A stretch of DNA of 64,000 nucleotides from Patescibacteria group bacterium (lineage in GTDB: Bacteria > Patescibacteriota > WWE3 > UBA101185 > UBA10185): contig JAFGOI010000008.1 in assembly GCA_016926555.1 (NCBI GenBank), forward strand, positions 12,821-76,820, read 5' to 3'. The notes under the pieces are model-generated. The model did not search any database, was not told the DNA's origin, and saw nothing but the letters and a program-made list of their open reading frames with translations. The translations under genes were made by a program, and so were the position numbers. Position 1 is the first letter of the stretch. The number at the start of each line of letters is the position of its first letter. Of the stretch, positions 21,353 to 50,744 are shown one piece after another.

Positions 21353-22615
21353 GTGAAAACACCCTATATACTAAATATTAAAAATGGATTAACTCTATGT
21401 ATTATTGAAAATGAGTATTCGGAGTCTGTTACTCTACACCTAAAAGGCCACGCGGGAAGTAATTATGAGGGCAGAGATGAAATAGGAGCAGCTCACTTTA
21501 TAGAACACTATCTATTAAACCTGCCGCAAAATGAAAAGATAACTAGACAAAAGGACGCTATTTTAAAAGGTGGGGGAAAGATAATTGGAGTTACAAGCCG
21601 AGACGATGTTCTCTTTATGGTCAAGGTTCTTAAAGAGTACTTTGATACAGCCCTTCTTTACATACTAACTATCCTGAATAACGATATAACTTATAACGAA
21701 GCCGCCTTTGAGAGCACACGCAATGCAGTTTTGCAGGAGATCGAGGCTAATAATTTAAAATTATCAAGAATACTAAGTAATTCCACATATAGCATAATGT
21801 TTCCAAAACAAAGAATAGGACTGCCTAATACCGGCAAAACGGAACATGCTAAAAAATTGACATTCTCCAGTCTGAAATCTTTTCATGCAGGAAATTACTC
21901 TTACGACAATTTTACACTTGTGATATCCGGAAATATTAAAAAGAAACAAGTTTTAGAATTTCTGAATGGATTTGACTTTCCAACGGGCTCTCAAGAACTA
22001 CAGAATAAAAACACAATTGACTTAAAAAACAGCCATAACTATAAACTAAACACCTTAATCAAACCCGGATTTCTACCCTGCCACATAAAAATAGACTTCC
22101 CAAGCCTCAAATATTCGGATGACAAATCTTACATACTTAACCTCTTAGCACTAATACTTAAACTTAGCTTGAATAGAGCCCTTAAAGAAAACCTACCATA
22201 CATCAACGTAGAATGTTTTAACTACAGCTCGGGTACATTTGGCATATTTTCTGTTTATGCAACATTAGAAGGGAACAATTTGATCTCTTACTTAAACATA
22301 CTAAGAAACGTAATAGATGGTATTAATAGTATTAGCCCAGAATGCCTTTATGACTGTAAGAAAGTATATAAATCCAATTTGCTATTTTCTTTAGAAAAAA
22401 CCTCATCTATAGCGGAATACTATTCAAACTGCATTACTCACGGGAACAAAAATCAGAACCACTCATATGAACTGCGCTATATAGACAAGCTAATTAGAGA
22501 AGAGCTGATCCGCACAACAAACAACCTGTTTAAATACAAACCGAAAGTAACGTTACTGCTAAACAGCCCGATATCTGGAAAAACCGAGAACAAAATAAAA
22601 CAAATTCTAGGATGA
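21353..22615 (+). CDS. M16 (pitrilysin/insulinase) family metallopeptidase-like protein.
   Basis: Inverted zinc motif HFIEH (HxxEH) near residue 47. GTG start. Confidence 0.55.
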   Translation: MKTPYILNIKNGLTLCIIENEYSESVTLHLKGHAGSNYEGRDEIGAAHFIEHYLLNLPQNEKITRQKDAILKGGGKIIGVTSRDDVLFMVKVLKEYFDTALLYILTILNNDITYNEAAFESTRNAVLQEIEANNLKLSRILSNSTYSIMFPKQRIGLPNTGKTEHAKKLTFSSLKSFHAGNYSYDNFTLVISGNIKKKQVLEFLNGFDFPTGSQELQNKNTIDLKNSHNYKLNTLIKPGFLPCHIKIDFPSLKYSDDKSYILNLLALILKLSLNRALKENLPYINVECFNYSSGTFGIFSVYATLEGNNLISYLNILRNVIDGINSISPECLYDCKKVYKSNLLFSLEKTSSIAEYYSNCITHGNKNQNHSYELRYIDKLIREELIRTTNNLFKYKPKVTLLLNSPISGKTENKIKQILG

Positions 22616-23524
22616 AAGATATACTTTTGTAATCCTGATAAATTCCAAGACTCTAATTACATTGAATATTACGCTTGTAATCCACATCGGATATTTATCC
22701 ATATAATGTTTTCTATAGAACAATCTCATTGCTTCGGTAGATGCCCTCGCCATTTTTACTTTCGTCTCAATAGGAATCCTTCTAATATTCTTATTTTCCC
22801 CTAATATCTTCTTTGATTGTTTTCTTCCTATTGAAGCACCTTTGTAATGAAGTACCTCAATTTGAGGCAAATAATATATTTTATATCCTTTTTCTTTTAC
22901 TCTATAACAAAAATCTATATCTTCACCAAACACAAAGTAATCCTCATCCCATTTAATACCATCCTCATATATCTTCCCTTTAGTAAACATAAAATGTGAG
23001 ATGCATGCATCAATCTCATGGGGTTTACTTAGGTTTTTCCATCCCTGAAAATACTGATTGAACAATTCTGACTTAAAAAATAATTTATCCAAACTCAGAA
23101 AATGTGTCATCGCCGCCAAAGGTGTTGGGAAACCTCTATGCGCATCCCAATCGATAGAACCATCTCTCAAAACCAATTTGGGAGATAATATTCCTGCACC
23201 ATCTGAAATCTCCATGAAACCAAATAGTTTCTTAATAGCATCTTTTGTAGGAAACGCATCCGTACCCAAATAACAGATGTAATCCGCCTTGGAAATATTT
23301 AAAGCCTTGTTATGTGCAGAAGCCAATCCCTCGTTTTTACTCCTTATAAATCGGATTTTTCCTTTCTGACTATATTCTTCACAAATTTCTCTGGAACCAT
23401 CGCTGGAATCATTGTCAATAACGATAATTTCCATATTCGGCCATATATCAGCCAGATTATCCACACACTTCTTCAGCAATTCTGCCGTATTATAATTAAC
23501 TATCACAAAATCAATCTTTTTCAT
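22607..23524 (-). CDS. Family 2 glycosyltransferase (GT-A fold).
   Basis: IDFVIVNYNTAELL...IIVIDNDSSDGS matches GT2 N-terminal motifs. Confidence 0.8.
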   Translation of the reverse strand: MKKIDFVIVNYNTAELLKKCVDNLADIWPNMEIIVIDNDSSDGSREICEEYSQKGKIRFIRSKNEGLASAHNKALNISKADYICYLGTDAFPTKDAIKKLFGFMEISDGAGILSPKLVLRDGSIDWDAHRGFPTPLAAMTHFLSLDKLFFKSELFNQYFQGWKNLSKPHEIDACISHFMFTKGKIYEDGIKWDEDYFVFGEDIDFCYRVKEKGYKIYYLPQIEVLHYKGASIGRKQSKKILGENKNIRRIPIETKVKMARASTEAMRLFYRKHYMDKYPMWITSVIFNVIRVLEFIRITKVYLSS

Positions 23525-23536
23525 ATTTTCACTAGT

Positions 23537-25033
23537 CTATTCCCCTGGGCACTTTAATACAAATACGGTTGAGAAATCTTTTGGACCGAATTCTTCCTCT
23601 ACAACCTCGCACCCCGGAAAGTAATTCAACCTTTTTCTATCTGTATCCATTGAGTAAACAACATAGTCCACATCACCATCAAAATCCCTTTTTATATTAC
23701 CCTTAAAATAATAGGAAAATGACTCAATATTATTCGGAACATATACAGTGATATCTCTACCTTTACCATTTAAATATATTGCCGCATTCGCAAAATATTC
23801 GCCGCTATTATCGTAAAATCCGTTTTCAAGAGCTGTTTTCGTGCCTCCTAAAACACCTGAGTAGTACGCGGAATAAACCGGGTGATATTTTTCCACGGCT
23901 ATAAGAAACACCATCATAGACAGAAAAACCGGCAATCCAGGTTTCATAAGGTAATTCGTAAAACATATAGAGATTGTTAGAATTATCGAAGGTAAAAACA
24001 CTATGGAATACCTATCAATTTTCTGGGATGTTATAGTTAGGAACAAGAAGCTCAATAATATATTTGCGAGTACAATCAGAATATTAAAATCTTTTGTCTT
24101 CCTTATTTCCCATAACGAAACTAAAAAAAGCGTTACAGTAACAAAAGAGTATTTATACAAAAAAACGGCGGGGTAATACAAAAAAGATGTTATACCGCTA
24201 TAATCACTTTTTCTTATTTCGCCATTTATCGATCCTGTAATACCGCGGAAAATATTACTAAACACATAGAACGAATCTGTCCACATTGCAGGGAAAAATA
24301 AATAAAAAGTAAGAATTACCAACAATGGAAAAGAAATCAATATTAGCACATTTCTATGCTCCTTAAACTTCAGCAGCAACACTAAAAAAATAGCCGGAAT
24401 TACTATTACGGCACTTATTTTTGTAAGCAGAGCTAACGCCAACAGCACTGCCGACAGATTTAAAGCTCTTTGGTCATAACATTTCGACCAATACATAACA
24501 AACAGCAGAGATGTAAACATCAAATTTATCTCCAGAGAAGTCAGATGAAACCATCTATTAATGCCTATATAGTAAGGCTCTATGGATATGAGCATCACGT
24601 AAATAAGCGCGGTTTTTACTGAAAACAACCTTCCTATCAGCTCATATTGAATTGTCACAAGAGCAAGGAGAGATAATATAACAAACAGACGCGTAATTAG
24701 GTGTATAACTGGATAGAAATCAGCATTTTCAAGTGTTTTGGGTTCCATATTGCGTATTAGCTGGTACCTGAATAAAATTTCTTCCGAGATCGCGCCAATC
24801 CACATTATAGTCACACCTGGGTGATAACTTTGGTATGTCTCTTTGAAATCGCCAGATTTTAACGACTCCAAGAATCCTATAGACCTTCTGTGCCATCTCG
24901 CTGCATCTGAATTCGACATGTCGTATTTCAAGGATGTGGTTCTGGGAAGTAGAAACAACAGCGATATGATGATATATATTTCCTTTCCCCTCAAGAGAAT
25001 AAGTAAGCTTTTAATTTTACTCATTAACACCAT
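23537..25033 (-). CDS. GT-C fold membrane glycosyltransferase (GT39/PMT-ArnT-like). Paralog of 40718-42226.
   Basis: More than 10 predicted transmembrane helices. N-terminal region similar to the 40718 protein (HPGVTIMW versus KPGITVHW). Confidence 0.55.
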   Translation of the reverse strand: MVLMSKIKSLLILLRGKEIYIIISLLFLLPRTTSLKYDMSNSDAARWHRRSIGFLESLKSGDFKETYQSYHPGVTIMWIGAISEEILFRYQLIRNMEPKTLENADFYPVIHLITRLFVILSLLALVTIQYELIGRLFSVKTALIYVMLISIEPYYIGINRWFHLTSLEINLMFTSLLFVMYWSKCYDQRALNLSAVLLALALLTKISAVIVIPAIFLVLLLKFKEHRNVLILISFPLLVILTFYLFFPAMWTDSFYVFSNIFRGITGSINGEIRKSDYSGITSFLYYPAVFLYKYSFVTVTLFLVSLWEIRKTKDFNILIVLANILLSFLFLTITSQKIDRYSIVFLPSIILTISICFTNYLMKPGLPVFLSMMVFLIAVEKYHPVYSAYYSGVLGGTKTALENGFYDNSGEYFANAAIYLNGKGRDITVYVPNNIESFSYYFKGNIKRDFDGDVDYVVYSMDTDRKRLNYFPGCEVVEEEFGPKDFSTVFVLKCPGE

Positions 25034-25188
25034 ATTATAAAATTAGTTTCCGACCCAATATAATTCACACACCTGAAATTACAAAATCTAAGATATATTG
25101 CTGTCGAAATAATAACTGCAAGAAACGACTGCGTCTTCAAATTTTTAAGATTATATTTTATATTTCTCATTTTTACCCAAATATATAA

Positions 25189-26286
25189 TTATGGATGCCA
25201 AACATGAAAACCGTCTTTCCATTGAACCAAGTAAAAGTAAAAGAACAACCAATACCCGCAAAGCAATGCATAACATGCGACTTTGTTATTAAATTTAAAA
25301 CCGCACATAACCAAAAATGGAATTGCCCAAAGGATGTAAGTTCTATTAAATACCGGCGTAATTACATAGAAAGTAAGGAAAGAAACCGTAGCTAGAATAT
25401 ATTTGTCTATTCCCTTGAGCACAGTACCCAGCACAGACACGAGTATCCAAGGAGCTACTATGGATAAGAAACTATAAACTTTAAATGGAATTATTTGGAA
25501 AAACTCTATATTGTAGTAATAACTAATATAAAACAACAGCGGTCGCCCCTGAATAAATCTGTTTCCATGTATAAAAAAAGTTCCGTTTAACATAGTAACA
25601 AAGTCATTTAAATCAAATAAGAAAGGCAGAAAGAATAATAGCGAAACTAATAAACCTGATAGAAGAAACTTCATTTTATTTTCTGACCTTATTATAAAAA
25701 TAGGAAATAAAATAATCGGGAACGTCTTCACCAATACAGATAACGCATAAAATGTCCCCGAAAGCACACTATCTCTTTCGAGATATATTATTGCCAGTAG
25801 CGCCAATAGAGTAGGTAAAGGATCTATATACGTATATCCAGATCTCAGAAAAGAGTATGGATTAAAAAGCCATAAACAAACCCCCAAAAGTCTCTCAGTA
25901 TATTTTTTATCTTTAAGTAGGCGAAATATCAAAAATGCGACCCCAAAGTCAGCCAAGAGAATCGGTATCTTCCATAAAACTACATATGGAAGCTGAAATA
26001 ATAGACAGAATATATAAATGGAGCCGTATAAATACAATATACCAGGTAAATAAACAAAACCATGATTGCCGGGGTCATCCGGGTTCGAATAGGATTCTAT
26101 TGACCATAAGTAGGGATTTGTTCCTGAAAAAAGATCTGAGATCGCCCTTTCATATGCATATATATCCTTGCTTGTTTGACTAATATACAGAATTCTTTTC
26201 TTAAAAGCTAAAAATAGGAGAACAACATAAATTATAACTTTTATTATGCTGACAGCTTTGTATCTGTTGTTCATTACTTTATTCAA
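25189..26286 (-). CDS. GT-C fold membrane glycosyltransferase (DUF2029/GT87-like). Paralog of 39429-40622.
   Basis: Polytopic. Shared motifs with 39429-40622 (NPY..., ALSVLVKTFPIILFPIF versus ALSVTLKTFPIILISIF). Confidence 0.5.
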   Translation of the reverse strand: MNKVMNNRYKAVSIIKVIIYVVLLFLAFKKRILYISQTSKDIYAYERAISDLFSGTNPYLWSIESYSNPDDPGNHGFVYLPGILYLYGSIYIFCLLFQLPYVVLWKIPILLADFGVAFLIFRLLKDKKYTERLLGVCLWLFNPYSFLRSGYTYIDPLPTLLALLAIIYLERDSVLSGTFYALSVLVKTFPIILFPIFIIRSENKMKFLLSGLLVSLLFFLPFLFDLNDFVTMLNGTFFIHGNRFIQGRPLLFYISYYYNIEFFQIIPFKVYSFLSIVAPWILVSVLGTVLKGIDKYILATVSFLTFYVITPVFNRTYILWAIPFLVMCGFKFNNKVACYALLCGYWLFFYFYLVQWKDGFHVWHP

Positions 26287-27766
26287 CTAAGTATATTCTA
26301 CCAAGAGTTTTCCCTCTATCCCTTACTGTTGTTAAATGTTCCTTTCCTCTTATCTGCGAAAACTTGTAATCCTGAACAAATGAAAGCGGATTTTTTATCC
26401 CTATAATAAAATAGCCAGCTTTGCTCTCCTTTTTCTCAATATCCATGTACATGTCCGCTATGCTTCTATGTTCATTTGTTATGTAGGTTAAATCTCTTCC
26501 CAACTTCTTATTTTGATCATTTATATACGAATTTATTTCCATCCAGTTTCTCCTTAATGGAAACCCTATAATATTGTTCGTGAGAGATTTATGATTATAT
26601 TGCTTTGTCTCCAAAAACAAAATTTTCTCACTAACAAAAGGATATTCAAGCCTATTATCAACAATGATCATATATGTTTGATAATACAAAAAGCAGCAGA
26701 TTACTGCCCCTGAGACATATCCAATATATTTACATGTGCCCCTCAACCTATTTTGGATTTCAACAAAAGACGATCCAACTAAAATGGATATCGGATATAA
26801 AAAATTGTAAACATGTGTCCCCGAACTTTTTATAAAAATTACAAAGAACAACAGAACCGCTACCAGCCATAGCAAATAATATTTATGCTTTTTAAACGAG
26901 ACCATACTTAATACTATTGCCGAAACCATTACTAATCTAAATAAAAATGGGTTGTAAAGAGTATATCTAAAATCATACTCATATATCTTCTCAACAACGT
27001 TCAAGCTTAGCCCCACCCTGGATCTGAAATAATCCATTGTATCCGCGTTTTTGCTATACTGAGCAAAATATACTGAAACAATCAAAATCGACATAACTAC
27101 CGGAAGTAGAAAGGCTAGTATTTTATAACTTCTCTTATTGTAAGTACCTCTTAACTGGGTCACACAACAGATAAACAAAAATGGCATAATAAATACCGCA
27201 TCCCAATGAGATAGAAGAGAAAGGAGATAAAACACATTACCCAGCGCCACATTACGCACAAAATTACCAGAGTCGCCCTTAAGTATATCCGAATAGAAAT
27301 ACATGCAAACAGTTGAGAAAAACAGGTTTAAACTTTGATACTGTACTATTCTCCCAAATGCGACCGTGAAACCGTTCACACCAAATATAAATGAACTCAA
27401 GAAAGCGACTTTATCCGACTTAGTAATATTTTTAACTGCTAAATAGAAGAACAAGATTGAGAAAGAATTAAATAGGGCATAGGGAACACGAAAAGTCAAT
27501 TCGGGAAAAACACTCCCATTAACTAAGTACACTAAATATGTGACTAAAAACTGAATAGGCCCTTTCCTCTCACTAAGAAACCTATCCCATCCATAAAAAT
27601 TCCCACTTATCTTCAGCGGCATAAGCAAATATGTTTCGTCGGGAATATATTCGGAGTAACCAAGATTTACAAATCTGAGTGCTCCCATAAATAGAAGCAA
27701 CAGCGCCAGATATTTAGTCTCCTTATTTAGTTTTAGCCTTGTTCCGAGTTTTTTTGTATTAAACAT
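26279..27766 (-). CDS. GT-C fold membrane glycosyltransferase (ArnT/GT83-39-like). Paralog of 28683-30134.
   Basis: Polytopic. Shared RKGP(I/M)QFLV motif with the 28683 protein. Confidence 0.55.
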   Translation of the reverse strand: MFNTKKLGTRLKLNKETKYLALLLLFMGALRFVNLGYSEYIPDETYLLMPLKISGNFYGWDRFLSERKGPIQFLVTYLVYLVNGSVFPELTFRVPYALFNSFSILFFYLAVKNITKSDKVAFLSSFIFGVNGFTVAFGRIVQYQSLNLFFSTVCMYFYSDILKGDSGNFVRNVALGNVFYLLSLLSHWDAVFIMPFLFICCVTQLRGTYNKRSYKILAFLLPVVMSILIVSVYFAQYSKNADTMDYFRSRVGLSLNVVEKIYEYDFRYTLYNPFLFRLVMVSAIVLSMVSFKKHKYYLLWLVAVLLFFVIFIKSSGTHVYNFLYPISILVGSSFVEIQNRLRGTCKYIGYVSGAVICCFLYYQTYMIIVDNRLEYPFVSEKILFLETKQYNHKSLTNNIIGFPLRRNWMEINSYINDQNKKLGRDLTYITNEHRSIADMYMDIEKKESKAGYFIIGIKNPLSFVQDYKFSQIRGKEHLTTVRDRGKTLGRIYLVE

Positions 27767-27808
27767 TATTATTGAACCAAATTAATTATATGGGTATCAT
27801 CATATTTA

Positions 27809-28681
27809 GTGAATAAAAACAAATTAGCATCCCTTTTTAATAGAAATAGTTTGTTATACATCTTAACTTTCGCTGTGGTCTTGCTGTCTCTACAAGTATT
27901 TTTCCCTGATGTGTCAAGGACAATCTTTGGCTCCAGTTTAACTTCATATAATTCAGGCGCAAGTTTGAAGTCAGCAAACTTATCGAGCAAATCGGAAACA
28001 AGTAACGCAAATTACGATCACACCAAATCTATATTTTCCATCCTGGTAAATAACACTGATTACACACTGGGGTCACTCAGAAATAAAGTTGAAGAATTAG
28101 AGGGGGAGGTTTTATCCTGGGACAATAATAGAGGAACTATAGATCAAATCGCGGAGTTGCTAATAAGGCTCCCAAAGGATAATTTCGAAACATTTGCCGG
28201 ATTCCTACGAAGTGAATCAATAAGAGTAGTATCAGAGAATATAAAAAATACCTCATACACTGAGAACGCCTACGAAAATCTAGACGAAAAAATAGAAAAG
28301 CTACAATCTACAATTAATACACTGGAAGATATCAAAACAAAGACTGAGGATTCCGTTAAGGTAATGAACGTTCAAAGACAGATTGATACGGTACAAGAGG
28401 ACATTGAAGCATTTAAGGCAAGAAAAGACTTTCTGGATCTGGAATTAAACACGATTTTGGTCCAAGTCAACTTAACTACCGATGAACAGGCTCTGCCATA
28501 TTTACCTTCTGATCCTTGGAGTCCAGAAACCGTATTCAAGAAAGCAGTCCGCAGTTTACTAATATCCGCGCAAAAAATCGGTACGGCGGCAATTTGGCTC
28601 TTTGTATACTCACCGATAATACTAGGTGTTTTGACTATACTAGTAACTTTAAGAAACTTATATCTGAGGTTTAAGAGATAG
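27809..28681 (+). CDS. Hypothetical membrane protein with an N-terminal transmembrane segment, a coiled coil and a C-terminal transmembrane segment (DUF4349-like architecture).
   Basis: Hydrophobic N- and C-terminal segments and heptad-like central region. Confidence 0.4.
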   Translation: MNKNKLASLFNRNSLLYILTFAVVLLSLQVFFPDVSRTIFGSSLTSYNSGASLKSANLSSKSETSNANYDHTKSIFSILVNNTDYTLGSLRNKVEELEGEVLSWDNNRGTIDQIAELLIRLPKDNFETFAGFLRSESIRVVSENIKNTSYTENAYENLDEKIEKLQSTINTLEDIKTKTEDSVKVMNVQRQIDTVQEDIEAFKARKDFLDLELNTILVQVNLTTDEQALPYLPSDPWSPETVFKKAVRSLLISAQKIGTAAIWLFVYSPIILGVLTILVTLRNLYLRFKR

Positions 28682-28682
28682 C

Positions 28683-30134
28683 CTACCAGTGAGTATTCGA
28701 GGAGCCCTTTAATCTATAAACTTCAGCCAAAACTAGGCCACCTTGCGTAAACTCTTTCTCTTTCTCGTAGTAATCCTTGTAAACCTTATTAAAGTTGACA
28801 TCCTTAATAAAGAACTCCTGCGGATTATTCACATGAATATAAAATTGAGGCAAAAAGTTGGATCCAGGAGGAGTGTAGTCTATCCCATTTAAATAATACT
28901 GGGCTATTGTGTCATTATCATTTGTGTAAATACCTCTGACACCTTCTTTTGATTCAAAATATTTTCTTAGCTCTCTCCAAGATCGATTATAGGGAAATCC
29001 ATATAAATATAAATGGTATTTGGTCGATATTTTACTATTCCATGGATACCCTGTATTTATTCTCGGCACATAAATAAATAGAGAGTTTACTAAAGTTACG
29101 GAGATTACGAAAACCGCTAAAACATTTGCCAGTTTGAGACCGACACGATCAGAAATTCCTTCGTATATTTCAACAAATGAGTAGCCACACATAATAGTCA
29201 GGGGAATGACGTATATATAAATATGTGTTCCAGGATTAAGAATAACCAATTCATATATAAGAAGGGCGCTGATAAACCAGAATAACTGAAGTTTCATACA
29301 TTTTTCTTTTATCTTTATAAAAAACAATACAAATGGAACAAGAAATATATAAAACGCTAGTATTGTGCGGTTGTAAACCAAATACGTATACAAGGAGTTA
29401 TTGAGCGAAAAATCTCCACCCGTCATCCTCCGCAATACATAATTAACCGTGTTATCCTCAAAATAGCCGCCGGTATAATAAGGTATATAGAAAACCGATG
29501 CTACAAGTAAAAAGGGTGCAACAAAATATACAAGAATAGGTATAAACTTCAACTTGTTTCTAATTACTAAATAAAATATCGGTATTAGAAAAAATACAGC
29601 ATCATAATGGCAGAGTAGGGAAGCGCTGAAAGATATAGCCGATAATAACAGTAGAACACAATTTTCCTTCTTTTTACACTGATTAACATACTTAACAAAA
29701 AGCAGAATACCCGATAGACCAAATAATATGAGTATGCTCTGGTACTGAATAGTTCGTGAAAACGCTATAAAAAAGCCACTCACCGAAAATAAATATGCAG
29801 CCGCTATTCCCGTTTTCCATCCGTAGAGACTTTTCACAAGAAGATACAAAACAAAAACAGATATCACCCCCGCAATTCCAAAAGGTATCCTAGTCCATAA
29901 TTCATGATAACCTCCAATAATTTTCTCGGTAAACCAAACCACAAGAAACTGCATCGGCCCCTTTCGCTGATCTAACAGAAATTCTTTCGCGGGAATTGTT
30001 TTATCCTGATAAAAAGTTTTTGTCTCATCCCCATAGAAATCCGAATATCCAAGAAACAATAAGCGGAGTAACACAGTAACAACAGCCAGAAAAATCAGCA
30101 ATTCTTTTTCATGTTTCTTGAACGAGAGCTTCAT
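28683..30134 (-). CDS. GT-C fold membrane glycosyltransferase (ArnT-like).
   Basis: Polytopic, with the RKGPMQFLV motif. Paralog of 26279-27766. Confidence 0.55.
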   Translation of the reverse strand: MKLSFKKHEKELLIFLAVVTVLLRLLFLGYSDFYGDETKTFYQDKTIPAKEFLLDQRKGPMQFLVVWFTEKIIGGYHELWTRIPFGIAGVISVFVLYLLVKSLYGWKTGIAAAYLFSVSGFFIAFSRTIQYQSILILFGLSGILLFVKYVNQCKKKENCVLLLLSAISFSASLLCHYDAVFFLIPIFYLVIRNKLKFIPILVYFVAPFLLVASVFYIPYYTGGYFEDNTVNYVLRRMTGGDFSLNNSLYTYLVYNRTILAFYIFLVPFVLFFIKIKEKCMKLQLFWFISALLIYELVILNPGTHIYIYVIPLTIMCGYSFVEIYEGISDRVGLKLANVLAVFVISVTLVNSLFIYVPRINTGYPWNSKISTKYHLYLYGFPYNRSWRELRKYFESKEGVRGIYTNDNDTIAQYYLNGIDYTPPGSNFLPQFYIHVNNPQEFFIKDVNFNKVYKDYYEKEKEFTQGGLVLAEVYRLKGSSNTHW

Positions 30135-31078
30135 TGCGTCTGTAGATCAGAAATATACTTTTCTGCGTCAAGCGCGGCCATACAGCCAAAACCTGCGGCC
30201 GAGACAGCTTGTCTGTACTTATAATCTGCGACATCCCCAGCAACAAAAACACCCCCCACAGAGGTTTTCGTACCTTCATGCACAATCACATAGCCTTTTC
30301 TATCCAAATCCAAAAAACCTTGTAAAAAGTCCGTATTTGGTTTATGCCCAATTGCTATAAATAAACCTTTTACGCCATCCAGCTTTGTATCCTCTCTTTT
30401 AATATTGTCATGTAGGATCAATCCTTCTACAACCTTTTCTCCAAGAATCTCTTTTACTTCGGTATTGAACAGGAATTCTATCTTCCTAGTTCGAAAAGCC
30501 TTATCCTGCATTATTTTACTTGCTCTTAGATTCTCCTTATCTCTTCTGACGAGAACATATACTTTTGGACTAAACTTCGATAGAAACAACGCCTCTTCCA
30601 TTGCGGCATCTCCGCCGCCCACTACCGCAGTAACTTTATCCTTAAAAAAGGGGCCGTCACACGTTGCACAAACTGAAACTCCTCTGCCTTTTAACCTCTC
30701 TTCACTTTCCAAACCCAACCATTTCGCCGAAGCCCCCGTTGCAATAATTAAAGCCTTTGCTTCCAACACACTTCCGTTTTCCAGAACTGCTTTAAAAGAA
30801 TCTTCTCCCGTTTTTTCAACATAATCTACATCGTAATCCATAAATTCAGCTCCAAATTTTTCTGCTTGAGAACGCATTCGTTCAATCAATTCAGGCCCTT
30901 TTACACCCTTGGGAAACCCAGGAAAATTTTCAACATCTGTAGTAATCATTAATTGCCCACCAGAAGTACTCCCGGAAACGACACACGTAGAGAGAAACCC
31001 TCTAGATGTATAAATTGCTGCCGTCAAACCCGCGCAACCCCCTCCCACTATCACAATTTCAAAACTTGTATTAGACAT
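30131..31078 (-). CDS. trxB: Thioredoxin-disulfide reductase.
   Basis: FAD motif IVIVGGGCAGLTAA, redox-active CATC (CATCDG), and NADPH motif VVGGGDAAMEEA. Confidence 0.9.
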   Translation of the reverse strand: MSNTSFEIVIVGGGCAGLTAAIYTSRGFLSTCVVSGSTSGGQLMITTDVENFPGFPKGVKGPELIERMRSQAEKFGAEFMDYDVDYVEKTGEDSFKAVLENGSVLEAKALIIATGASAKWLGLESEERLKGRGVSVCATCDGPFFKDKVTAVVGGGDAAMEEALFLSKFSPKVYVLVRRDKENLRASKIMQDKAFRTRKIEFLFNTEVKEILGEKVVEGLILHDNIKREDTKLDGVKGLFIAIGHKPNTDFLQGFLDLDRKGYVIVHEGTKTSVGGVFVAGDVADYKYRQAVSAAGFGCMAALDAEKYISDLQTQ

Positions 31079-31372: not shown

Positions 31373-31834
31373 ATGGCAACACTGCTACTTAAGATAAATG
31401 GTTATTACGCTTTAAATAAAACCCTATTCCCGCCAAATTTATATATATATGATGATCTAGTAGTATATAAAAAGAGGAAATTTTTTTTCTGGGGTGACGA
31501 AATAACATATTCCTATAACCAAATAGCACAGGTTTCACTAAAAACAGGTCTTCTGTTTTCTCATTTGGAACTCTCTACAACGGGAAAGGACGAAATAACA
31601 GTTAAGTATGTTTTTAAGTGGAAAGCAAAATTAGCAAAGAAAATCATAGACCAGAAAATATACCATGCTCACGCCAAAATGCATCCTCATAAAGACACCA
31701 GTACGGAAAACTATAAGAATATGACATCTTTTGAAAAGGCGCTAAGCCGGCTCGAGGAACTTGCTCTGCGCGGGAAAATCTCAAAATCTTTCTACAAAAA
31801 GAAGAAAAATGAGCTTTTGAAAAAAATAGGGTAA
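31373..31834 (+). CDS. Bacterial PH-domain-like protein with a C-terminal SHOCT-like motif.
   Basis: The C-terminus LEELALRGKISKSFYKKKKNELL resembles SHOCT. The N-terminal region resembles bPH_2. Confidence 0.4.
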   Translation: MATLLLKINGYYALNKTLFPPNLYIYDDLVVYKKRKFFFWGDEITYSYNQIAQVSLKTGLLFSHLELSTTGKDEITVKYVFKWKAKLAKKIIDQKIYHAHAKMHPHKDTSTENYKNMTSFEKALSRLEELALRGKISKSFYKKKKNELLKKIG

Positions 31835-32934: not shown

Positions 32935-33020
32935 GCCCGGGTGGTGGAATGGCAGACACGAGAGACTTAAAATCTCTTGTCCTTTTGGACGTGTGGGTTC
33001 GACTCCCACCCCGGGCACCA
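32935..33020 (+). tRNA. tRNA-Leu (anticodon TAA), with a long variable arm.
   Basis: Acceptor GCCCGGG/CCCGGGC, anticodon loop CTTAAAA, long variable arm, T-loop GGTTCGACTCC, CCA encoded. Confidence 0.8.
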
Positions 33021-33038
33021 CAAATATATCTCCTAACT

Positions 33039-33311
33039 ATGGAGAATAAATGGCATCACTTAAAAGATATACTCACTCAGCACACATCAAAATCCCGCAG
33101 ACCGGACTACATCACACACGCAGAGACCACTCTAGATTGGCCACTAAAACTTGAACCAAATGCGACTTGGGAAATGGAGTTAGCGGCATTTGCGCATGAT
33201 ATCGAAAGGTGCTGGTTTGACAAGATGGCACACATAGAGAACGAACAATATATTGATTATAAAATCAGACATTCGCAAAGAAGCGCTAGATTCAGAGTTA
33301 TAAACAGGTGA
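33039..33311 (+). CDS. Short HD-motif protein (90 aa). Possibly a truncated HD-domain phosphohydrolase fragment.
   Basis: AFAHDIER motif. Start trimmed to the ATG at 33039 because the track ORF beginning at 32949 overlaps tRNA-Leu. Confidence 0.3.
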   Translation: MENKWHHLKDILTQHTSKSRRPDYITHAETTLDWPLKLEPNATWEMELAAFAHDIERCWFDKMAHIENEQYIDYKIRHSQRSARFRVINR

Positions 33312-36388: not shown

Positions 36389-36844
36389 TTATCTGCTAAT
36401 TTCAATTGTTTCACCTAGTTCAGCTAATAAAGAGTGCACTGTTATTTTTCCATACTGAGTCCTTGATATTTCATATCCGGTTCCGTTGAATGTTTTATCT
36501 TGAGGATCCACAGGGATTAGGGTCAGATACTGCTCATTTTTTAGTAAAACGGACAAATCGACGTACCCGGTACAATCAACTGCATGTTCTTTGCATATTT
36601 CCTTGGGTTCTTGAGTAATAGAAAGCGGCAGATCTCCATTTTGCGCCTGATAACTCTTTACTCCGAGTGCGATCATGTGAATATCAATTCTTCTTCTTGT
36701 ATTCCTGGCCCGAGCTATTTGTCTATAGGGCTTAATCACTGAAACAACAACAACAGCTAAAATACCTAATATAATCACTACAAGTATTATTTCGACAAGT
36801 GTAAATCCCACCTTGGTACCAAATTCCTTTTTACCAAGAAGCAT
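36389..36844 (-). CDS. Type IV pilin / pseudopilin (prepilin-type N-terminal cleavage/methylation domain).
   Basis: KVGFTLVEIILVVIILGILA class III signal (G/FTLVE). Confidence 0.75.
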   Translation of the reverse strand: MLLGKKEFGTKVGFTLVEIILVVIILGILAVVVVSVIKPYRQIARARNTRRRIDIHMIALGVKSYQAQNGDLPLSITQEPKEICKEHAVDCTGYVDLSVLLKNEQYLTLIPVDPQDKTFNGTGYEISRTQYGKITVHSLLAELGETIEISR

Positions 36845-36882: not shown

Positions 36883-38649
36883 CTAGTGTATTTCGGCACT
36901 CTTTTCTTTTATAAACTTTCGCCAATCAGCAATAAAGGACAAAAAAGTAGAGAAGGGCACATCTATCAGCGCACTTAAAAACACACTCACAAAGTTATAT
37001 TCTTTCCATTTATTTGATAACCACATGCCAATTTTGGCCATAGGAACCGAAAAAAAGTTTAGAAACATTTCCACCAGACCGCCATCTTCTTCAATGGTTA
37101 GTTCCCGCGACTTTTGTCTTATCAACATAGCGGCAAAAACTACTATAGCAACATTCGCCGCATCAATATACAAAGATGTCCATGGCACACCGGCGAATAA
37201 AAACACTATATACACCAAATATAACGATCCTATACCTCCTATCACATAAATCAGTGTAAATATTAAAGAAAATATCGGATTTTTCCTCTTATTTAGAATT
37301 ATTTCGTACTCATCTTCCTTTTCACTGCCATAAATAATATTGTATATCTCATCGAGAAGTCTCTTAAAATTATCAGGCGATGGTAATTTAATAATAGCTA
37401 CAAGAATAAACATCATCGCCGTAGGGATCATAATATCTACAACAATCGCCCATGGTTTAAACTCGCCATATATCCATTTCGCTATCGGAAACTCGAACAC
37501 TATCAAACTTGCTCCACCAGCCACAAAAATGGAAATAGTAGAATATATCGCGGACCTGGTTAACCGTCTTTTTAACGTAGACATACGCTGTTTATACTGT
37601 TCTTTTATGTACCAACCAAACTTTGCCCTGTCACTTACTATACTTTTTAACGATGCCCTATCTTTTGATATACGCTCAAAAGCATCCCCAATTATCAAAT
37701 AAGCCGCATCGTATTTCTCACATATCTCAAAAAATTTACCTTTCCATGGGTGTTCTAAATACTCCGTAATTTCGTTCCATATTTTTTCTATATTGTCGCT
37801 AAAATATTTGAAATCTTTTTCCGTATACTTGCAGAAATTATTGTATTTATACTTAAGAAGCCTGAATGAAATTATAGGAGAATCCAGATTAAATATACTC
37901 CTATGAACCGCTACATATGTTTGGATATACTTTTCTTCATTAGTAATAGCTTTAGCCGGTTTTACCTTTATTCTAGTGTAAATAACATTTGTCATTAAGT
38001 TCATCAGCGCGTGCTCTTTATATGCTGGCTCTAATGCCTCTTCTATTTCACTCGCAGCTACTTCAGTTATCCAGTTATAGAATTCTATTTTTCTTTTTAT
38101 CGAAAGGTTCCCGGTTTTATTAGAAAGGGGATTGTTTTTTAATATGTAATCGTATTTTTTTAGAATACTAAGAATCTCAGGTACCTTTTTCTTAGATATC
38201 AATTTATGAGAGAAGTATCCGGTGCGTAACAATTCGTCCATAAAAGATTCCGCAAAATCATAATTTAGATCCCCGTTTAGAATAAGGTTCTTTCCGGTAG
38301 CTCTTGTTATGAGCCTCCTTTTTAGAATCCTTTCAATTGCGGACCGCCTGACAAGGTGCTCCTCCTTCCAATCTACAACTTGCCTGATTCTCTCGTAAAA
38401 CCGGCCAATTCTAGTAGCCAATCTATCAACTTCAATAGGCGATTCAACCTCTTTAGCATCGTATTCCAAAGCTTTCATATAATCACCAATATATTTGATG
38501 ATGAATGTATTAAGTTCTGCAGGTCCCGCATCTTTTTCTAAATCACTCTCCGTATCTCCAAATGTGATATCCGGGATATATCTATCTAAACTAGATAATC
38601 TTATTTTCTCATTGTATTGTTTTGAACCTAGAAATGTGAATAAATTCAT
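36883..38649 (-). CDS. Hypothetical protein (588 aa) with C-terminal transmembrane helices.
   Basis: Soluble N-terminal ~360 aa followed by 4-6 hydrophobic helices. Confidence 0.5.
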   Translation of the reverse strand: MNLFTFLGSKQYNEKIRLSSLDRYIPDITFGDTESDLEKDAGPAELNTFIIKYIGDYMKALEYDAKEVESPIEVDRLATRIGRFYERIRQVVDWKEEHLVRRSAIERILKRRLITRATGKNLILNGDLNYDFAESFMDELLRTGYFSHKLISKKKVPEILSILKKYDYILKNNPLSNKTGNLSIKRKIEFYNWITEVAASEIEEALEPAYKEHALMNLMTNVIYTRIKVKPAKAITNEEKYIQTYVAVHRSIFNLDSPIISFRLLKYKYNNFCKYTEKDFKYFSDNIEKIWNEITEYLEHPWKGKFFEICEKYDAAYLIIGDAFERISKDRASLKSIVSDRAKFGWYIKEQYKQRMSTLKRRLTRSAIYSTISIFVAGGASLIVFEFPIAKWIYGEFKPWAIVVDIMIPTAMMFILVAIIKLPSPDNFKRLLDEIYNIIYGSEKEDEYEIILNKRKNPIFSLIFTLIYVIGGIGSLYLVYIVFLFAGVPWTSLYIDAANVAIVVFAAMLIRQKSRELTIEEDGGLVEMFLNFFSVPMAKIGMWLSNKWKEYNFVSVFLSALIDVPFSTFLSFIADWRKFIKEKSAEIH

Positions 38650-38664
38650 AAGTTAACCAGAAAA

Positions 38665-39249
38665 TTAATTACTTTCTATAGATTTTGACAACATACTACT
38701 AAACTTCTCCGTAATCTCATCAGAATCCTGCAAGTCTTGAATAAAAGGGTTTAAAGCAAAACTCAGTATATTCATGCTTACAACTGATAAGACCTTAAAA
38801 GTCCATTTCTTAAACAAACTCACACTTCCAAGCAACTCCCTTATAAAAATTAGAAGTTCTGTTCTGAGTTCAACGATGAACTTTGTTACTGGAAACTCAT
38901 CCTGACCTGTTATACCTAACGAGGTTAACAATTTTATCTCGGGATTAGCTATACCGTAATCAACGATCATACGCACAATACTGAAAATAAAATCTATTGG
39001 ATCTTTGCTGTCATATACCACCTCACTCAGTTTTTCTTTAAGTCTGGTGCAAGAAGTATTTAGTACTGTTTTTAGAAGCTGTTCTTTACTTTCAAAGTAG
39101 TAATAGAGTGTCGATTTACTAACACCAACCTCAAAAGCTATTTTGTCCATAGATACACCATAATAACTCCTCTGAGAAAATAGTCTTGCGGCAGTCTTTA
39201 TAATCTTATCCTTAGTATTAACGTTACTAGTATTTTTATTTATAGACAT
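38665..39249 (-). CDS. TetR/AcrR family transcriptional regulator.
   Basis: N-terminal HTH KIIKTAARLFSQRSYYGVSMDKIAFEVGVSKSTLYYYF. Confidence 0.8.
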   Translation of the reverse strand: MSINKNTSNVNTKDKIIKTAARLFSQRSYYGVSMDKIAFEVGVSKSTLYYYFESKEQLLKTVLNTSCTRLKEKLSEVVYDSKDPIDFIFSIVRMIVDYGIANPEIKLLTSLGITGQDEFPVTKFIVELRTELLIFIRELLGSVSLFKKWTFKVLSVVSMNILSFALNPFIQDLQDSDEITEKFSSMLSKSIESN

Positions 39250-39428: not shown

Positions 39429-40622
39429 TTAAATCCCCTTAATGAATCTACTTCTCAATTCGTAAATCAAGGAAAAGGTCGGCTTATAAACTAATACGGG
39501 ATCCAGCCACACCCTTCCGCCAAAAGTAGCGGGCTCTTTCAGACCTTTATTCCATATCGCTAAATAAAAGCACAAAAATACATATAGAACAGTCATAGAA
39601 ACAAAGTGTTTTTTAAGTTTATTCTTAAAAATAGTTGCACTTCCTAAATATATAAAAGGAGTACCCCATATAAAATGGGTTCTATTTAGCACAGGCGTAA
39701 ACAAATAATAAACAGAAAAAGAAGTTATTATTAGTATCCAGATATTATTAACTTTCTTCTTAAAAAACAAATACAACGGCAAAATTTGCGCTCCCAGCAA
39801 AGCACACATCGTATAGATTTCGTTAAACTCCGCCTGGTAGAAATTAACTCCATAATCCTGGAGATAATAGGTAAAAGTACCAAAAAAGGGCCGGCCCTGA
39901 ATACTCCTACTTCCATGAACAAGCAAAGCACCATTTATATACAGCATAGCGTCTTGTACAGACGTGATAAAGGGTAGAGAAAGAAGTATCGTTATCAAAA
40001 AACCTCCTAAAATAAACTTTTTCAGATCTTTTGTCTTTATTAAAAATATTGAGATTAGTATTATAGGAAATGTTTTTAAAGTGACCGATAACGCGTACAT
40101 CACACCCGATATAAAATCTTTTTTCCCTACAGTAAAAACACTTATCAGCAGAAACAACACGGGCAGCACATCATAATTTGTATACTCGTATTTCATAAAA
40201 AAATACGGATGTATAAACCAGAATAACAAACCAAAAATAATCACAGAGTAGGGAAACTTTTCCTTCTTTAAAATTTTACAAAGCAAAATACCCACAATTA
40301 TATCCGCTATAAGAACGGGAACTTTCCACATATACTTTGTCGGTAAATCAAGATCAAAAATCATATTCACTTTTGTAAAAAAAGTCTGAATGTATAAAAG
40401 AGTAGGCATATAAGAGTATCCATGTTTAAGTTTTTCATCTTCAAACGACTGGACAGTGTATATATAAGGATTCACGCCGCCAAGAAAATTCATAACCGTG
40501 GTTTTAAATGTACTGTGATCACCACCTTCTTGATCAAAAACTAATAGTCTCAAAATTACAGATATCACAAAAATGAACAAGATCACCGCTTTGTAGAATC
40601 TTTCCAAACTTTGCACTTTCAT
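39429..40622 (-). CDS. GT-C fold membrane glycosyltransferase (DUF2029/GT87-like). Paralog of 25189-26286.
   Basis: Polytopic. Shared motifs with 25189-26286. Confidence 0.5.
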   Translation of the reverse strand: MKVQSLERFYKAVILFIFVISVILRLLVFDQEGGDHSTFKTTVMNFLGGVNPYIYTVQSFEDEKLKHGYSYMPTLLYIQTFFTKVNMIFDLDLPTKYMWKVPVLIADIIVGILLCKILKKEKFPYSVIIFGLLFWFIHPYFFMKYEYTNYDVLPVLFLLISVFTVGKKDFISGVMYALSVTLKTFPIILISIFLIKTKDLKKFILGGFLITILLSLPFITSVQDAMLYINGALLVHGSRSIQGRPFFGTFTYYLQDYGVNFYQAEFNEIYTMCALLGAQILPLYLFFKKKVNNIWILIITSFSVYYLFTPVLNRTHFIWGTPFIYLGSATIFKNKLKKHFVSMTVLYVFLCFYLAIWNKGLKEPATFGGRVWLDPVLVYKPTFSLIYELRSRFIKGI

Positions 40623-40717: not shown

Positions 40718-42226
40718 ATGCTATCTAAGCTCAAGATTAAAAAACTGCAATTTACAGATATATTGTTTGTGATTACCCTAATCATCTACGCGTTCTTTGG
40801 GTACAGCAGAATAGGGAAGGCTTCAATAAATAATGACGCCCAATTCTGGTATACAAGAACGCAAAACTTTATTGACGCAGTACAAGAAAAAAGATGGGGA
40901 GAGACTCTTCAAAATCCAAAACCGGGAATCACGGTTCACTGGCTCTCCGGATTAAGTTTGGAAACTTTCTTGAGTTTGTACGAAAAGATATATCACTTTA
41001 GACCGGACATCTATACTTACGATACTTTTCATCTTGTTCACTTTTCAGTTATCGCACCTTTAATAACCGTAAATGTTGTTTTCATCGCGGTTTTTTACTT
41101 CTTGTGCAGTAAGATATTTTCTAAGGAGATTAGTCTTTTAGGTGTAATTCTTTTTAGTATGCAACCATTTTATGTTGGTATATCGAGAAATTTCCACTCC
41201 GATAGTATATTAGCTGCATTTATGACTTTATCCTCCATTATCCTTATTTACTACTTAAACAAAAAACCAATTGTTAAATACGCTATTTTTTCCGGAGTCT
41301 TCGCCGGTCTGGCTCTTTTAAGTAAATCATCCGCTGTTTTTCTGCTGCCATATATTTCTCTACTGCTATTACTGGATTTCGCTTTTAATAGAAGACCGCT
41401 CAAGTTTTATATCTCATCCTTCCTTTTATGGCTGATCACATGCTCAATCACTTTTTTTATCTTACTGCCCGATATGTGGATCGAACCTGCACAAAACTTA
41501 AAGGAAATATTCATTTACGAAGGGTACTTCCTGGCAACAACAGGAAGAGATGGTATTAACAACTTTTTCTACTACATTGAACCTATTTTAAGAGTGACAA
41601 CACCTATATTGTTAATGTGTTTTTTGACAAGCATTCTATATTTCATAGTCAACAGAAAAGAATTTAGACTAAAAAAAGAAACCTCGATTTTCTACATATT
41701 TTGCTATACCTTTTTTTATCTTCTACAAATATCTATCACAAAGCAAAAAATGGATAGGTATTTACTCCCCGTATTTCCCTTTATTGCACTACTAAGCGGT
41801 TACGGGATTATTAATTTTATCGATAAACATTTAAAAACCCACAAATACAATATTTTTCTACTACTTTTCATCGCCAACTTTATATTTATTCTAAGCTACT
41901 ACCCAAATTACTTAATATACCCAAGTCAAAAAGGCAAAGACCAATTTGGATGCTCGTTGTGCAGTGATATAGGTGAATATCTAAACAACAAACCAAACGC
42001 TTCCGATCTCAAAGTTATAAGCCTATCCGACAAAGTGCACAGAATTAAACCATTTGTTAAGGGAAAAGTATATACAATACACGAAATACTACCAGCAGGA
42101 TGGACTGCAGAGTACTTGATAGCTGCAAAAGATGAAACACTCCCAAATGAGTATCAACATTGTATTATAGAAAAAACCATTTCTTTTAAAGGAGTAGAGT
42201 ATTGGGATATTTATAGGTGCAAATAG
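40718..42226 (+). CDS. GT-C fold membrane glycosyltransferase (GT39-like). Paralog of 23537-25033.
   Basis: Polytopic. N-terminal loop similarity to the 23537 protein. Confidence 0.55.
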   Translation: MLSKLKIKKLQFTDILFVITLIIYAFFGYSRIGKASINNDAQFWYTRTQNFIDAVQEKRWGETLQNPKPGITVHWLSGLSLETFLSLYEKIYHFRPDIYTYDTFHLVHFSVIAPLITVNVVFIAVFYFLCSKIFSKEISLLGVILFSMQPFYVGISRNFHSDSILAAFMTLSSIILIYYLNKKPIVKYAIFSGVFAGLALLSKSSAVFLLPYISLLLLLDFAFNRRPLKFYISSFLLWLITCSITFFILLPDMWIEPAQNLKEIFIYEGYFLATTGRDGINNFFYYIEPILRVTTPILLMCFLTSILYFIVNRKEFRLKKETSIFYIFCYTFFYLLQISITKQKMDRYLLPVFPFIALLSGYGIINFIDKHLKTHKYNIFLLLFIANFIFILSYYPNYLIYPSQKGKDQFGCSLCSDIGEYLNNKPNASDLKVISLSDKVHRIKPFVKGKVYTIHEILPAGWTAEYLIAAKDETLPNEYQHCIIEKTISFKGVEYWDIYRCK

Positions 42227-43126: not shown

Positions 43127-43942
43127 ATGTGTGTGACTTCTAAAAACTCGAAGAAATTTTTCCAAAGAGACGGCAAACCTTTAAACAACACCATAGAAAC
43201 AATTAGTATTGTCCCAACATCCGAAATTCACATAAATCAGGCTATCTTTGATGAACTAAACAGTCCGCCAAAACCAAATAATCTGAGAAATCTTCTGAGT
43301 GAGAAGTTTGAGAAATTCGTGGATTCAAAGCCTAAACTGCCACTTCCTAACATCAAATCGTTCTCTCTACTTAAACTGAGCTCCTTTTCAGCAGCATCAC
43401 TTGCTATAGCGATAATTGTACTACTAGTAATACCGCTAAAGATAAAACCGAGGATAGACGCATACTCAATATATTCATCAAAACCGTTAACAATGGATGA
43501 GATGACTTATGACATCTATACGAAGGATTCCCGTTCTCAAAGAATAAATGAGGTGTTCAAAGAATACGGATGCCCGCTGGAGGGGATGGGGGAGACCTTT
43601 GTGCATGAGGCCGACGAAAACGACATTCCGTGGTGGATCGTAGCTGCTATAGCCTTTCAGGAGTCAAGTTGCGGCAAAAACTCGCCAAAAATTGATGGAC
43701 AGGAATCATATAATGCATGGGGATGGGCTGTTTACGGCGAGAGCGTACACTCTTTTGATAACTGGGCAAGAGGCATAGAAACTGTTTCTAAGTACTTATC
43801 TAATAGATTTTACTCTCAGGGCATAACTAATACCTGCGAAATAATGAAAATTTACACGCCTCCATCCAACGGCTCCTGGTGTGAAGGAGTTGAGCACTTC
43901 AAAGAGCTGATAGTTAACTATAAATCTCCCGCTGCAGAATAA
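43127..43942 (+). CDS. Membrane-anchored protein with a glucosaminidase-like (mannosyl-glycoprotein endo-beta-N-acetylglucosaminidase/FlgJ-type) peptidoglycan hydrolase domain. Tentative.
   Basis: C-terminal AIAFQESSCGKN...SYNAWGWAVYG...NWARGIETVSKYL...IYTPPSNGSW resembles the glucosaminidase consensus (ESgwG...NnlFGik...YAtdpnY). One transmembrane helix. Confidence 0.45.
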   Translation: MCVTSKNSKKFFQRDGKPLNNTIETISIVPTSEIHINQAIFDELNSPPKPNNLRNLLSEKFEKFVDSKPKLPLPNIKSFSLLKLSSFSAASLAIAIIVLLVIPLKIKPRIDAYSIYSSKPLTMDEMTYDIYTKDSRSQRINEVFKEYGCPLEGMGETFVHEADENDIPWWIVAAIAFQESSCGKNSPKIDGQESYNAWGWAVYGESVHSFDNWARGIETVSKYLSNRFYSQGITNTCEIMKIYTPPSNGSWCEGVEHFKELIVNYKSPAAE

Positions 43943-43952
43943 CCTGTAGTAT

Positions 43953-44570
43953 TTGCGGCTACACCCAAAAAATGATATAATTTCAATTCATATGCGGATA
44001 AAACTTAGAATTTACAGCTCAATAATTACCCCTGCGGCCATTTTAATGGCTCTGTTTACGTTGCTTAGTTTTAGTTCTTCTAACAGCAAAAACGCTATAA
44101 ATGGCCCGTTATTTTCGGATAAAATCGCGGTTTCAGAGGTAAATAGGGTAGAAGTACTAGAAAACTTCTTTGATAACTACAATTCACCTCTAAGAGATCA
44201 CGCGGACACTTTTGTTGAAGTAGCCGATAAATATGGTATGGACTACACAATACTCCCCGCTATTTCGTGTATGGAATCTACATGCGGAAAATACATGATA
44301 CCGGGCTCTTATAATCCTTTTGGATGGGGTATTCATGGAAATAGCTCCATTGCTTTCAACAGCTTCGATGAGGCAATAGAGACTGTAGGAAAAGGCATGA
44401 GTGACATTTATCTTTCAAAAGGCCTGGATACACCTGACAAAATAGCCCCTGTTTATACACCTCCTAACTCCAATGGATGGCTAAAAGGTGTTAATTTCTT
44501 TATCGAACAAATAGATAAAGAAGAGGTATCTAATCAAGTTAGATTAGCGAGCAATTTAGAATTACACTAA
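43953..44570 (+). CDS. Paralogous membrane-anchored glucosaminidase-like protein.
   Basis: ISCMESTCGKY...SYNPFGWGIHG...AIETVGKGM...VYTPPNSNGW. Same motif set as the upstream gene. Confidence 0.45.
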   Translation: MRLHPKNDIISIHMRIKLRIYSSIITPAAILMALFTLLSFSSSNSKNAINGPLFSDKIAVSEVNRVEVLENFFDNYNSPLRDHADTFVEVADKYGMDYTILPAISCMESTCGKYMIPGSYNPFGWGIHGNSSIAFNSFDEAIETVGKGMSDIYLSKGLDTPDKIAPVYTPPNSNGWLKGVNFFIEQIDKEEVSNQVRLASNLELH

Positions 44571-50686: not shown

Positions 50687-50744
50687 AAAAAAATTATATT
50701 ATGTCAAGTTGAAAATAACAAAAATATAATATATCATCCTCACG

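Follow-up and report, generated by a model that had tools for sequence, protein, structure and literature searches.

PMTs carry a DE motif after the first transmembrane segment, and teichoic-acid glycosylation of the YfhO/CsbB type occurs in Firmicutes. In mycobacteria and corynebacteria, lipomannan, lipoarabinomannan and arabinogalactan are assembled by many GT-C glycosyltransferases together with cytoplasmic GT2 enzymes such as WbbL (PMC12041525, PMC3485146, and in part general knowledge). In PimE, D58 at the tip of the juxtamembrane helix JM1 is the catalytic base, and K195 and W319 hold the donor phosphate (PMC12041525). Here we describe two groups of membrane glycosyltransferase genes in a stretch of 64,000 nucleotides (the window; contig JAFGOI010000008.1, with positions counted from the first letter of the stretch) from a Patescibacteria group bacterium, whose deposited window proteins bear JXA34_ locus tags and have their closest named relatives in genomes of candidate division WWE3, an uncultivated group of very small bacteria. 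Gene content, paralogy, fold, residue conservation, synteny and duplication age were computed, and the results point to two vertically inherited modules with six active GT-C enzymes of three families that diverged long ago, which would probably assemble or decorate an envelope glycoconjugate step by step outside the membrane. Public annotation already labels these proteins GT39/ArnT/DUF2029-like, and our search of the literature on GT-C enzymes, ArnT and glycosylation in the candidate phyla radiation (CPR)/Patescibacteria found no paper describing this cluster.

Module 1 (trxB-C' and C-B-A-GT2) occupies 22.6-31.1 kb, and module 2 (the divergent pair B'/A') occupies 39.4-42.2 kb, about 9 kb off. 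The genes, with their best family matches, are as follows.

22607-23524, minus strand: GT2, a soluble GT-A glycosyltransferase of 305 amino acids (aa), WbbL/rhamnosyltransferase-like (PF00535, 92.5 bits); last in the C-B-A-GT2 run
23537-25033, minus strand: A, an ArnT/PMT_2-like GT-C protein of 498 aa with a C-terminal soluble domain (PMT_2, 26.4 bits; cut-off 26.1)
25189-26286, minus strand: B, a compact GT-C protein of 365 aa, ALG6/ALG3/PIG-M/PimE-like subgroup (no Pfam match, even at E <= 1)
26279-27766, minus strand: C, a PMT/ArnT/STT3-like GT-C protein of 495 aa with a C-terminal alpha/beta domain (PMT, 17.7 bits, below the cut-off of 22.7)
27809-28681, plus strand: DUF4349 protein, a membrane-anchored coiled coil with transmembrane segments at both ends (PF14257, 68.6 bits)
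28683-30134, minus strand: C', a GT-C protein of 483 aa (PMT_2, 48.4 bits; PMT, 27.2 bits)
30131-31078, minus strand: trxB, thioredoxin-disulfide reductase (TIGR01292, 366.4 bits; cut-off 343.45); first of the trxB-C' unit
31373-31834, plus strand: bacterial PH-domain protein, bPH (bPH_3, 27.5 bits), divergent from trxB and at the conserved block boundary
39429-40622, minus strand: B', a GT87/DUF2029-like GT-C protein of 397 aa (GT87, PF09594, 32.7 bits; cut-off 25)
40718-42226, plus strand: A', a PMT_2/ArnT-like GT-C protein of 502 aa, divergent from B' (PMT_2, 49.4 bits; PMT, 30.4 bits)

The first-pass annotation, which was made from the letters of the window, had proposed six polytopic GT-C enzymes, and Pfam matches, paralogy and fold searches agree with it. 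Family models assign PMT_2 to A, A' and C' and GT87 to B', with C sub-threshold and B without a match, and each of the six candidates has about 7-10 hydrophobic segments in an intact open reading frame (ORF). B and C, the two proteins that lack a significant Pfam match, were modelled with AlphaFold from family alignments (pLDDT 90.6 for B and 90.2 for C; pTM 0.91). The B model matched solely GT-C structures before the scores collapsed, ALG6, ALG3, PIG-M and PimE being the closest. The first 31 Foldseek matches of the C model, which ends in a C-terminal alpha/beta domain of about 120 aa, were likewise all GT-C structures (STT3, Pmt4, Pmt1/2, ArnT, AglB, PglB, ALG12, AftB, Emb and similar). No transporter stood above noise in the fold searches, and the outcome that the first-pass annotation had named as fatal to its proposal, namely that the proteins are unrelated transporters, is excluded. 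The A-family profile matched ArnT (5ezm) at E 1.3e-3, while the ArnT equivalog model PRK13279 gave A' 19.5 bits against a cut-off of 567 and did not match the other five proteins. C was placed in the PMT/PMT_2 group through its homology to C' (E 7e-32), its own score being sub-threshold, and B was placed in GT87 through its homology to B' (E 4e-62) and its fold, not through a Pfam score of its own. On sequence and predicted fold, the six proteins are GT-C-type glycosyltransferases of the GT-C_A fold.

Candidate catalytic residues were sought in family alignments of 51-58 divergent sequences each (51 for A, 52 for C). Each family has an invariant Asp within about 10 residues after the first transmembrane segment (D41 in the B family, D43-E44 in the C family and D43 in the A family), and the alignments also hold invariant basic residues (K187 in B; K205, R160 and H163 in A). 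The invariant Asp and the basic residues are kept in all six window proteins. By sequence position, the invariant D41, K187 and W320 of the B family lie at places similar to D58, K195 and W319 of PimE, with no equivalent of H322 noted. In the C-terminal soluble domain of the A family, C475 is nearly invariant and C495 is invariant, which fits a disulfide outside the cytoplasm.

The six genes form three paralogous pairs. The pairing given in the first-pass annotation (23537 with 40718, 25189 with 39429, and 26279 with 28683) was borne out exactly by pairwise alignment (27-33% identity, E 1e-28 to 4e-62). By BLASTP, A and A' share 27.7% identity over 404 aa (E 1e-28), B and B' share 33.3% over 360 aa (E 4e-62), and C and C' share 26.6% over 482 aa (E 7e-32). 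When the 58 window proteins were compared all against all, the only other paralogues were 43127 and 43953, plus one weak cross-family match between C' and A' in the PMT_2 core; because no further pairs appeared, a common hydrophobic composition is not behind the pairing. Between families, A and C are homologous over their full length (hhalign profile-profile comparison, 98.5%, E 3e-15), and B and A give a weaker match (78%, E 1.7e-5).

The members of each pair are nevertheless farther from one another than from genes of other genomes, as the orthologue identities of 34-61% exceed the 27-33% of the window partners for every copy. The highest identities found elsewhere were 48% for A, 55% for B, 38-40% for C, 50% for C', 61% for B' and 56% for A'; the A' orthologues range from 56% in the metagenome loci L044/L045 through 38% in L042 to 34% for the protein P0185. 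In a neighbour-joining (NJ) tree of 52 B-family sequences, B' falls into a clade of 10 members from different contigs (97% bootstrap) from which B is excluded, and a third clade consists of genes that form tandems with B within the trxB clusters of other genomes. Relatives have both C and C', at about 40-45% identity. Thus the three pairs are old, diverged, specialised paralogues and not redundant recent copies. In L042 a B-family gene lies directly upstream of an A'-type gene, and an ancient duplication of a unit in which B preceded A is possible.

Related loci were collected by a scan of species genomes with the two-sequence B/B' alignment, which returned one locus, and by a scan of metagenomes with the 58-sequence alignment, which returned 69 further loci. 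Between 13.7 and 31.8 kb, the window has the gene order of the WWE3 loci L004/L005, namely cyclophilin, radical SAM protein, methyltransferase, HIT protein, Ig-like protein, A, B, C, C', trxB and bPH. About 16 of all related loci collected have the order bPH-trxB-C'-[variable opposite-strand gene]-C-B-[extra GT-C]-A, and L054 has the arrangement of the window minus C (trxB-C'-DUF4349-B-family-A-GT2-M16). The bPH orthologue stands at the same position in L004, L020, L025-L030, L034, L037 and L067. Among the dereplicated loci, trxB is present in 8/18 with at least 5 kb of upstream sequence, A in 8/22 and GT2 in 6/22 with at least 5 kb of downstream sequence, and at least three recognisable GT-C genes lie within 8 kb in 7/14 with both flanks. 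For module 2, the divergent arrangement of B' (minus) and A' (plus) recurs in two near-identical metagenome contigs (L044/L045), the B-family/A'-type pair of L042 adjoins a DUF2207 gene, as DUF2207 is also near A' in the window, and in L046 the orthologues of window genes 43127 and 43953, of trigger factor and of ClpP stand next to a B-family gene. The neighbourhoods of other B' and A' orthologues differ. Among 1.84 billion representative proteins, the small B subfamily numbers 61 clusters at E <= 1e-30.

Relatives add to this core. In L017, L020 and L027, YfhO-like proteins of 685-716 aa are encoded directly upstream of the A orthologue, and the clusters of relatives also gain further PMT_2 proteins and an S-adenosylmethionine-dependent (SAM) methyltransferase; with these additions, uninterrupted runs of eight to ten GT-C-type genes arise in some WWE3 genomes. 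At the place between B and A where the window has a gap of 155 bp (25034-25188), L004 carries a fifth gene, which is PMT_2-like. Because both arrangements recur in related loci, both modules are inherited, with frequent local gain and loss. The word island in the first-pass annotation is misleading, as the block has a GC content similar to that of the remaining window and shares its gene order, housekeeping flanks included, with WWE3 genomes. On the same two grounds we rejected a horizontal origin of the block as acquired DNA.

The layout of module 1 is also slightly different from that first described. GT2 and the four GT-C genes are present at the coordinates then given, and trxB is real, but the four are not strictly consecutive, since the DUF4349 gene interrupts them, and trxB (30131-31078) lies past the end set for the region (30134). 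The DUF4349 gene is convergent with C' and divergent from C, and its position on the opposite strand between C and C' implies at least two transcription units. A promoter/terminator scan was uninformative, as promoter-like sites were fewer than in shuffled sequence; one 10/12 match lies in the 42-bp region between C and the DUF4349 gene and is a hint at most. The ORF of B starts with TTG, with a likely ATG start at 26274 that would give 361 aa, and in the deposited annotation the starts of B and A lie some codons downstream (361 and 495 aa).

In the other unit, the product of trxB carries the CATC redox motif, and the stop of trxB and the start of C' lie within 4 shared nt (30131-30134). An overlap of 1-4 nt is also found in four divergent relatives (L020, L025, L054 and L058), and in relatives the gene directly upstream of C' is a trxB orthologue (56-62% identity). 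The repeated overlap implies a conserved translational coupling of a thioredoxin reductase to a membrane glycosyltransferase. In L017 and L054, too, the variable slot that separates C' from C is taken by DUF4349, and in L020/L025 by other small genes; in L004, this opposite-strand slot beside trxB-C' is filled by superoxide dismutase.

The GT2 gene (22607) was considered together with the cluster. Counted over dereplicated loci, at least 6 have the gene next to the cluster, and the orthologues that adjoin it in L020, L024, L025, L054, L067 and L072 are 45-50% identical to the window GT2. A profile search of the 1.84 billion representative proteins with the B family found a distant relative of 772 aa (P0399) in which an N-terminal GT2 domain is fused to a C-terminal GT87 domain, and residues 2-249 of the window GT2 align to that GT2 domain (25% identity, E 2e-8). 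Since the neighbourhood recurs and such a GT2-GT87 fusion exists, GT2 is, judged from these sequence comparisons, functionally linked to the GT-C enzymes. The best NCBIfam and PDB matches of GT2 are polysaccharide-type or WbbL-like (HpsE, PgaC, a rhamnosyltransferase, chondroitin synthase at 69 bits, and TarP), and the protein has a hydrophobic/amphipathic C-terminal tail. As a separate observation, the upstream neighbour of the B' orthologue P0005 encodes a GT2 protein of 798 aa, and a GMPPB-like nucleotidyltransferase gene is nearby.

From these data we infer donor type, topology, catalytic roles, acceptor and sequential action as follows. Each GT-C enzyme would sit in the cytoplasmic membrane. 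The invariant Asp, placed where the first outer loop helix begins, would act as the catalytic base, the phosphate of the polyprenyl-phosphate sugar donor would be bound by the conserved Lys/Arg/His set, and the sugar would be transferred on the outer face of the membrane. Since the enzymes belong to distinct families, keep a fixed order and have YfhO-like and PMT_2 partners in relatives, it is most likely that they work in succession on one and the same envelope glycoconjugate. Candidates for it are a glycolipid/lipoglycan anchored in the membrane and a polymer of the wall or teichoic-acid-like type. The closest structural relatives of B all use lipid-linked acceptors, and the A and C types resemble lipid or protein modifiers. 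On the inner face, the cytoplasmic GT2 may prime or extend a lipid-linked acceptor or may make a lipid-linked donor.

Several results weigh against this proposal. Searches of solved-structure sequences with the B- and C-family profiles gave nothing at E <= 1, so that the catalytic-residue equivalences are positional and not drawn from structural superposition. PIGU, a non-catalytic member of the GT-C fold, is among the best structural matches of B. Of the related loci that have a B-family gene, about half do not display the full cluster. The NJ/Kimura trees of the A and C families are saturated, with weak bootstrap, and for this reason the age of these two families rests on bit-score and identity comparisons. 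Within the window there is no recognisable synthase of the GtrB/DPM1/Ppm1 type, flippase or nucleotide-sugar gene.

Other explanations were weighed against the same evidence. That some or all of the proteins are transporters or non-catalytic GT-C scaffolds like PIGU is suggested by the presence of PIGU/GAB1 among the top structural matches of B and by the lack of significant Pfam matches for B and C; however, no transporter rose above noise in either fold search, the Asp and basic residues do not vary among the 51-58 divergent sequences of each family, and all six ORFs are intact, which makes this explanation very unlikely. Still more improbable is the recent segmental duplication and rearrangement within this genome that the first-pass annotation proposed, by which the two sites would be redundant copies. 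The mirrored order A-B ... B'-A' invites it, as does the B-family gene directly upstream of an A-type gene in both module 1 and L042. However, the paired copies are only 27-33% identical at the protein level, no significant DNA similarity was found between the two regions (the best blastn match is 19 nt, E >= 0.07), and each copy has closer orthologues elsewhere, the B' clade having 97% bootstrap and both C and C' occurring in relatives at about 40-45%. In its recent form this explanation is refuted, and the event was at most ancient.

Two further explanations concern the sugar donor and the acceptor. The first-pass annotation offered the 22607 gene as a DPM-like enzyme, and a polyprenyl-phosphate sugar synthase of the DPM1/GtrB/Ppm1 kind would supply the GT-C donor. 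Such a role would suit a gene that closes the C-B-A-GT2 run, adjoins the cluster in at least 6 of the dereplicated loci, belongs to the same subtype as the GT2 domain fused to GT87 in P0399, and weakly matches DPMS (5mlz, 32 bits). Yet the donor-synthase models rank last for GT2 (ArnC, 15.4 bits against a cut-off of 529; AglJ, 16.7 bits), behind the polysaccharide-type and WbbL-like matches, no transmembrane helix is predicted, and GT2 is missing from the cluster in WWE3 genomes of the L004 type. We find the donor-synthase role doubtful, and it is somewhat more likely that GT2 would extend a lipid-linked acceptor on the cytoplasmic face. The enzymes could instead be protein O-glycosyltransferases (PMT/TfpW analogues) that would serve an attached lifestyle by modifying type IV pilins, an S-layer or further secreted proteins. 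PMT/PMT_2 models match A, A', C and C', the C model matches Pmt4 and Pmt1/2, and the C family has its D-E pair after the first transmembrane segment, as in PMTs. On the other side, PMT_2 matches are equally typical of lipid-modifying ArnT-like enzymes, no MIR domain or other PMT-specific feature was detected, and ALG6, ALG3, PIG-M and PimE, the closest to B, all act on lipid-linked acceptors. The pilus part of this explanation, which the first-pass annotation had suggested along with S-layer glycosylation, keeps some footing in a type IV pilin-like gene (36389-36844) that follows B' on its strand at a distance of 2.6 kb, and in the B' orthologue P0005, which adjoins T2SSE, T2SSF and two N_methyl genes. 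But other B' orthologues have unrelated neighbours, and a strict scan for the class III signal-peptide motif found no pilin in 820 kb of related loci, against one gene in the window; because that scan of the related loci was empty, the pilin reading is kept only as a rival, the main one, possible but unlikely.

The pilin-like ORF itself (36389-36844, minus strand) encodes 151 aa with a G|FTLVE class III motif and a sub-threshold N_methyl match (15.2 bits). It lies downstream, on the same strand, of B', of a TetR regulator (38665-39249) and of a protein of 588 aa (36883-38649) with five C-terminal transmembrane segments and no Pfam match.

Other features of the window lie outside the two modules. 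The tandem paralogues at 43127-43942 and 43953-44570 (plus strand; 32% identity, E 4e-24) have an N-terminal transmembrane segment and a weak Glucosaminidase-like match. At 5483-7975 (plus strand), an AMP-binding domain, a phosphopantetheine-attachment (carrier) domain and an acyltransferase are fused in a protein of 830 aa, whose domains suggest acyl activation and transfer, perhaps in lipid scavenging or remodelling. Beside it are an ADP-forming acyl-CoA synthetase/FAD-NAD oxidoreductase fusion (2148-5027, minus strand) and a pyruvate:ferredoxin oxidoreductase subunit (415-2151, minus strand). Two large acidic ORFs (499 and 798 aa, no Pfam match) at 49187-54073 flank a Peptidase_M78 (ImmA/IrrE-like) gene and an ORF of 106 aa, and GC is 0.43 at 52-54 kb and about 0.37 elsewhere; the segment 49187-54073 may be mobile or foreign. 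The ORF of 120 aa at 32949-33311 (plus strand), which overlaps the tRNA gene 32935-33017 in a group of three tRNA genes (31849, 32812 and 32935), is probably not a real gene.

The envelope chemistry of CPR/Patescibacteria is almost uncharacterised, and their genomes are small. Because four to ten GT-C genes are kept in order across WWE3 in such small genomes, the block is probably important for the envelope and possibly for cell attachment. The three families, their candidate catalytic residues and the linked GT2 provide targets for glycolipid/glycoprotein analysis in enrichment cultures. A bolder and rather improbable extension, by analogy to actinobacterial lipomannan and arabinogalactan, is that GT87-, ArnT/PMT- and, in relatives, YfhO-like enzymes would form a line with the WbbL-like GT2 that makes a conserved membrane-anchored WWE3 lipoglycan or wall glycopolymer outside the membrane and is coupled to thioredoxin reductase in both transcription and translation. 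Were this so, the product would be a defining, essential envelope component of ultra-small bacteria and possibly their interface with a host.

Each of the known systems matches the locus in part. PimE, ALG6, ALG3 and PIG-M are the nearest to B in fold, with structure-based identities of 13-18%, although the B-family profile matches no PDB sequence at E <= 1, and the host of PimE is mycobacterial whereas that of the window is a CPR bacterium from which no phosphatidylinositol mannosides are known. Like ArnT (GT83) and PMT (GT39), A, A', C and C' join a soluble domain at the C-terminus to a transmembrane GT-C core and have PMT_2/PMT matches; unlike them, A' is far below the ArnT equivalog cut-off (19.5 versus 567), there is no MIR domain, and the soluble domain is small (about 120 aa). 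Lipid A, the target of ArnT, would not be expected in a single-membrane CPR cell. The window is without a YfhO-like gene and without a GtrB/CsbB-like GT2, but it shares with YfhO/CsbB systems a single-membrane host envelope, and the clusters of relatives have YfhO-like GT-C proteins upstream of the A orthologue. The mycobacterial pathways belong to an unrelated lineage and use a Ppm1-like synthase and large Emb/Aft-type enzymes that the window does not have, yet they too place several GT-C families, including GT87-like enzymes, beside a WbbL-like GT2, which, as an analogy of mechanism only, suggests stepwise assembly of a lipid-anchored glycan. The results also correct the evolutionary reading of the locus to one of old specialised paralogues, in a system that is otherwise of a familiar kind.

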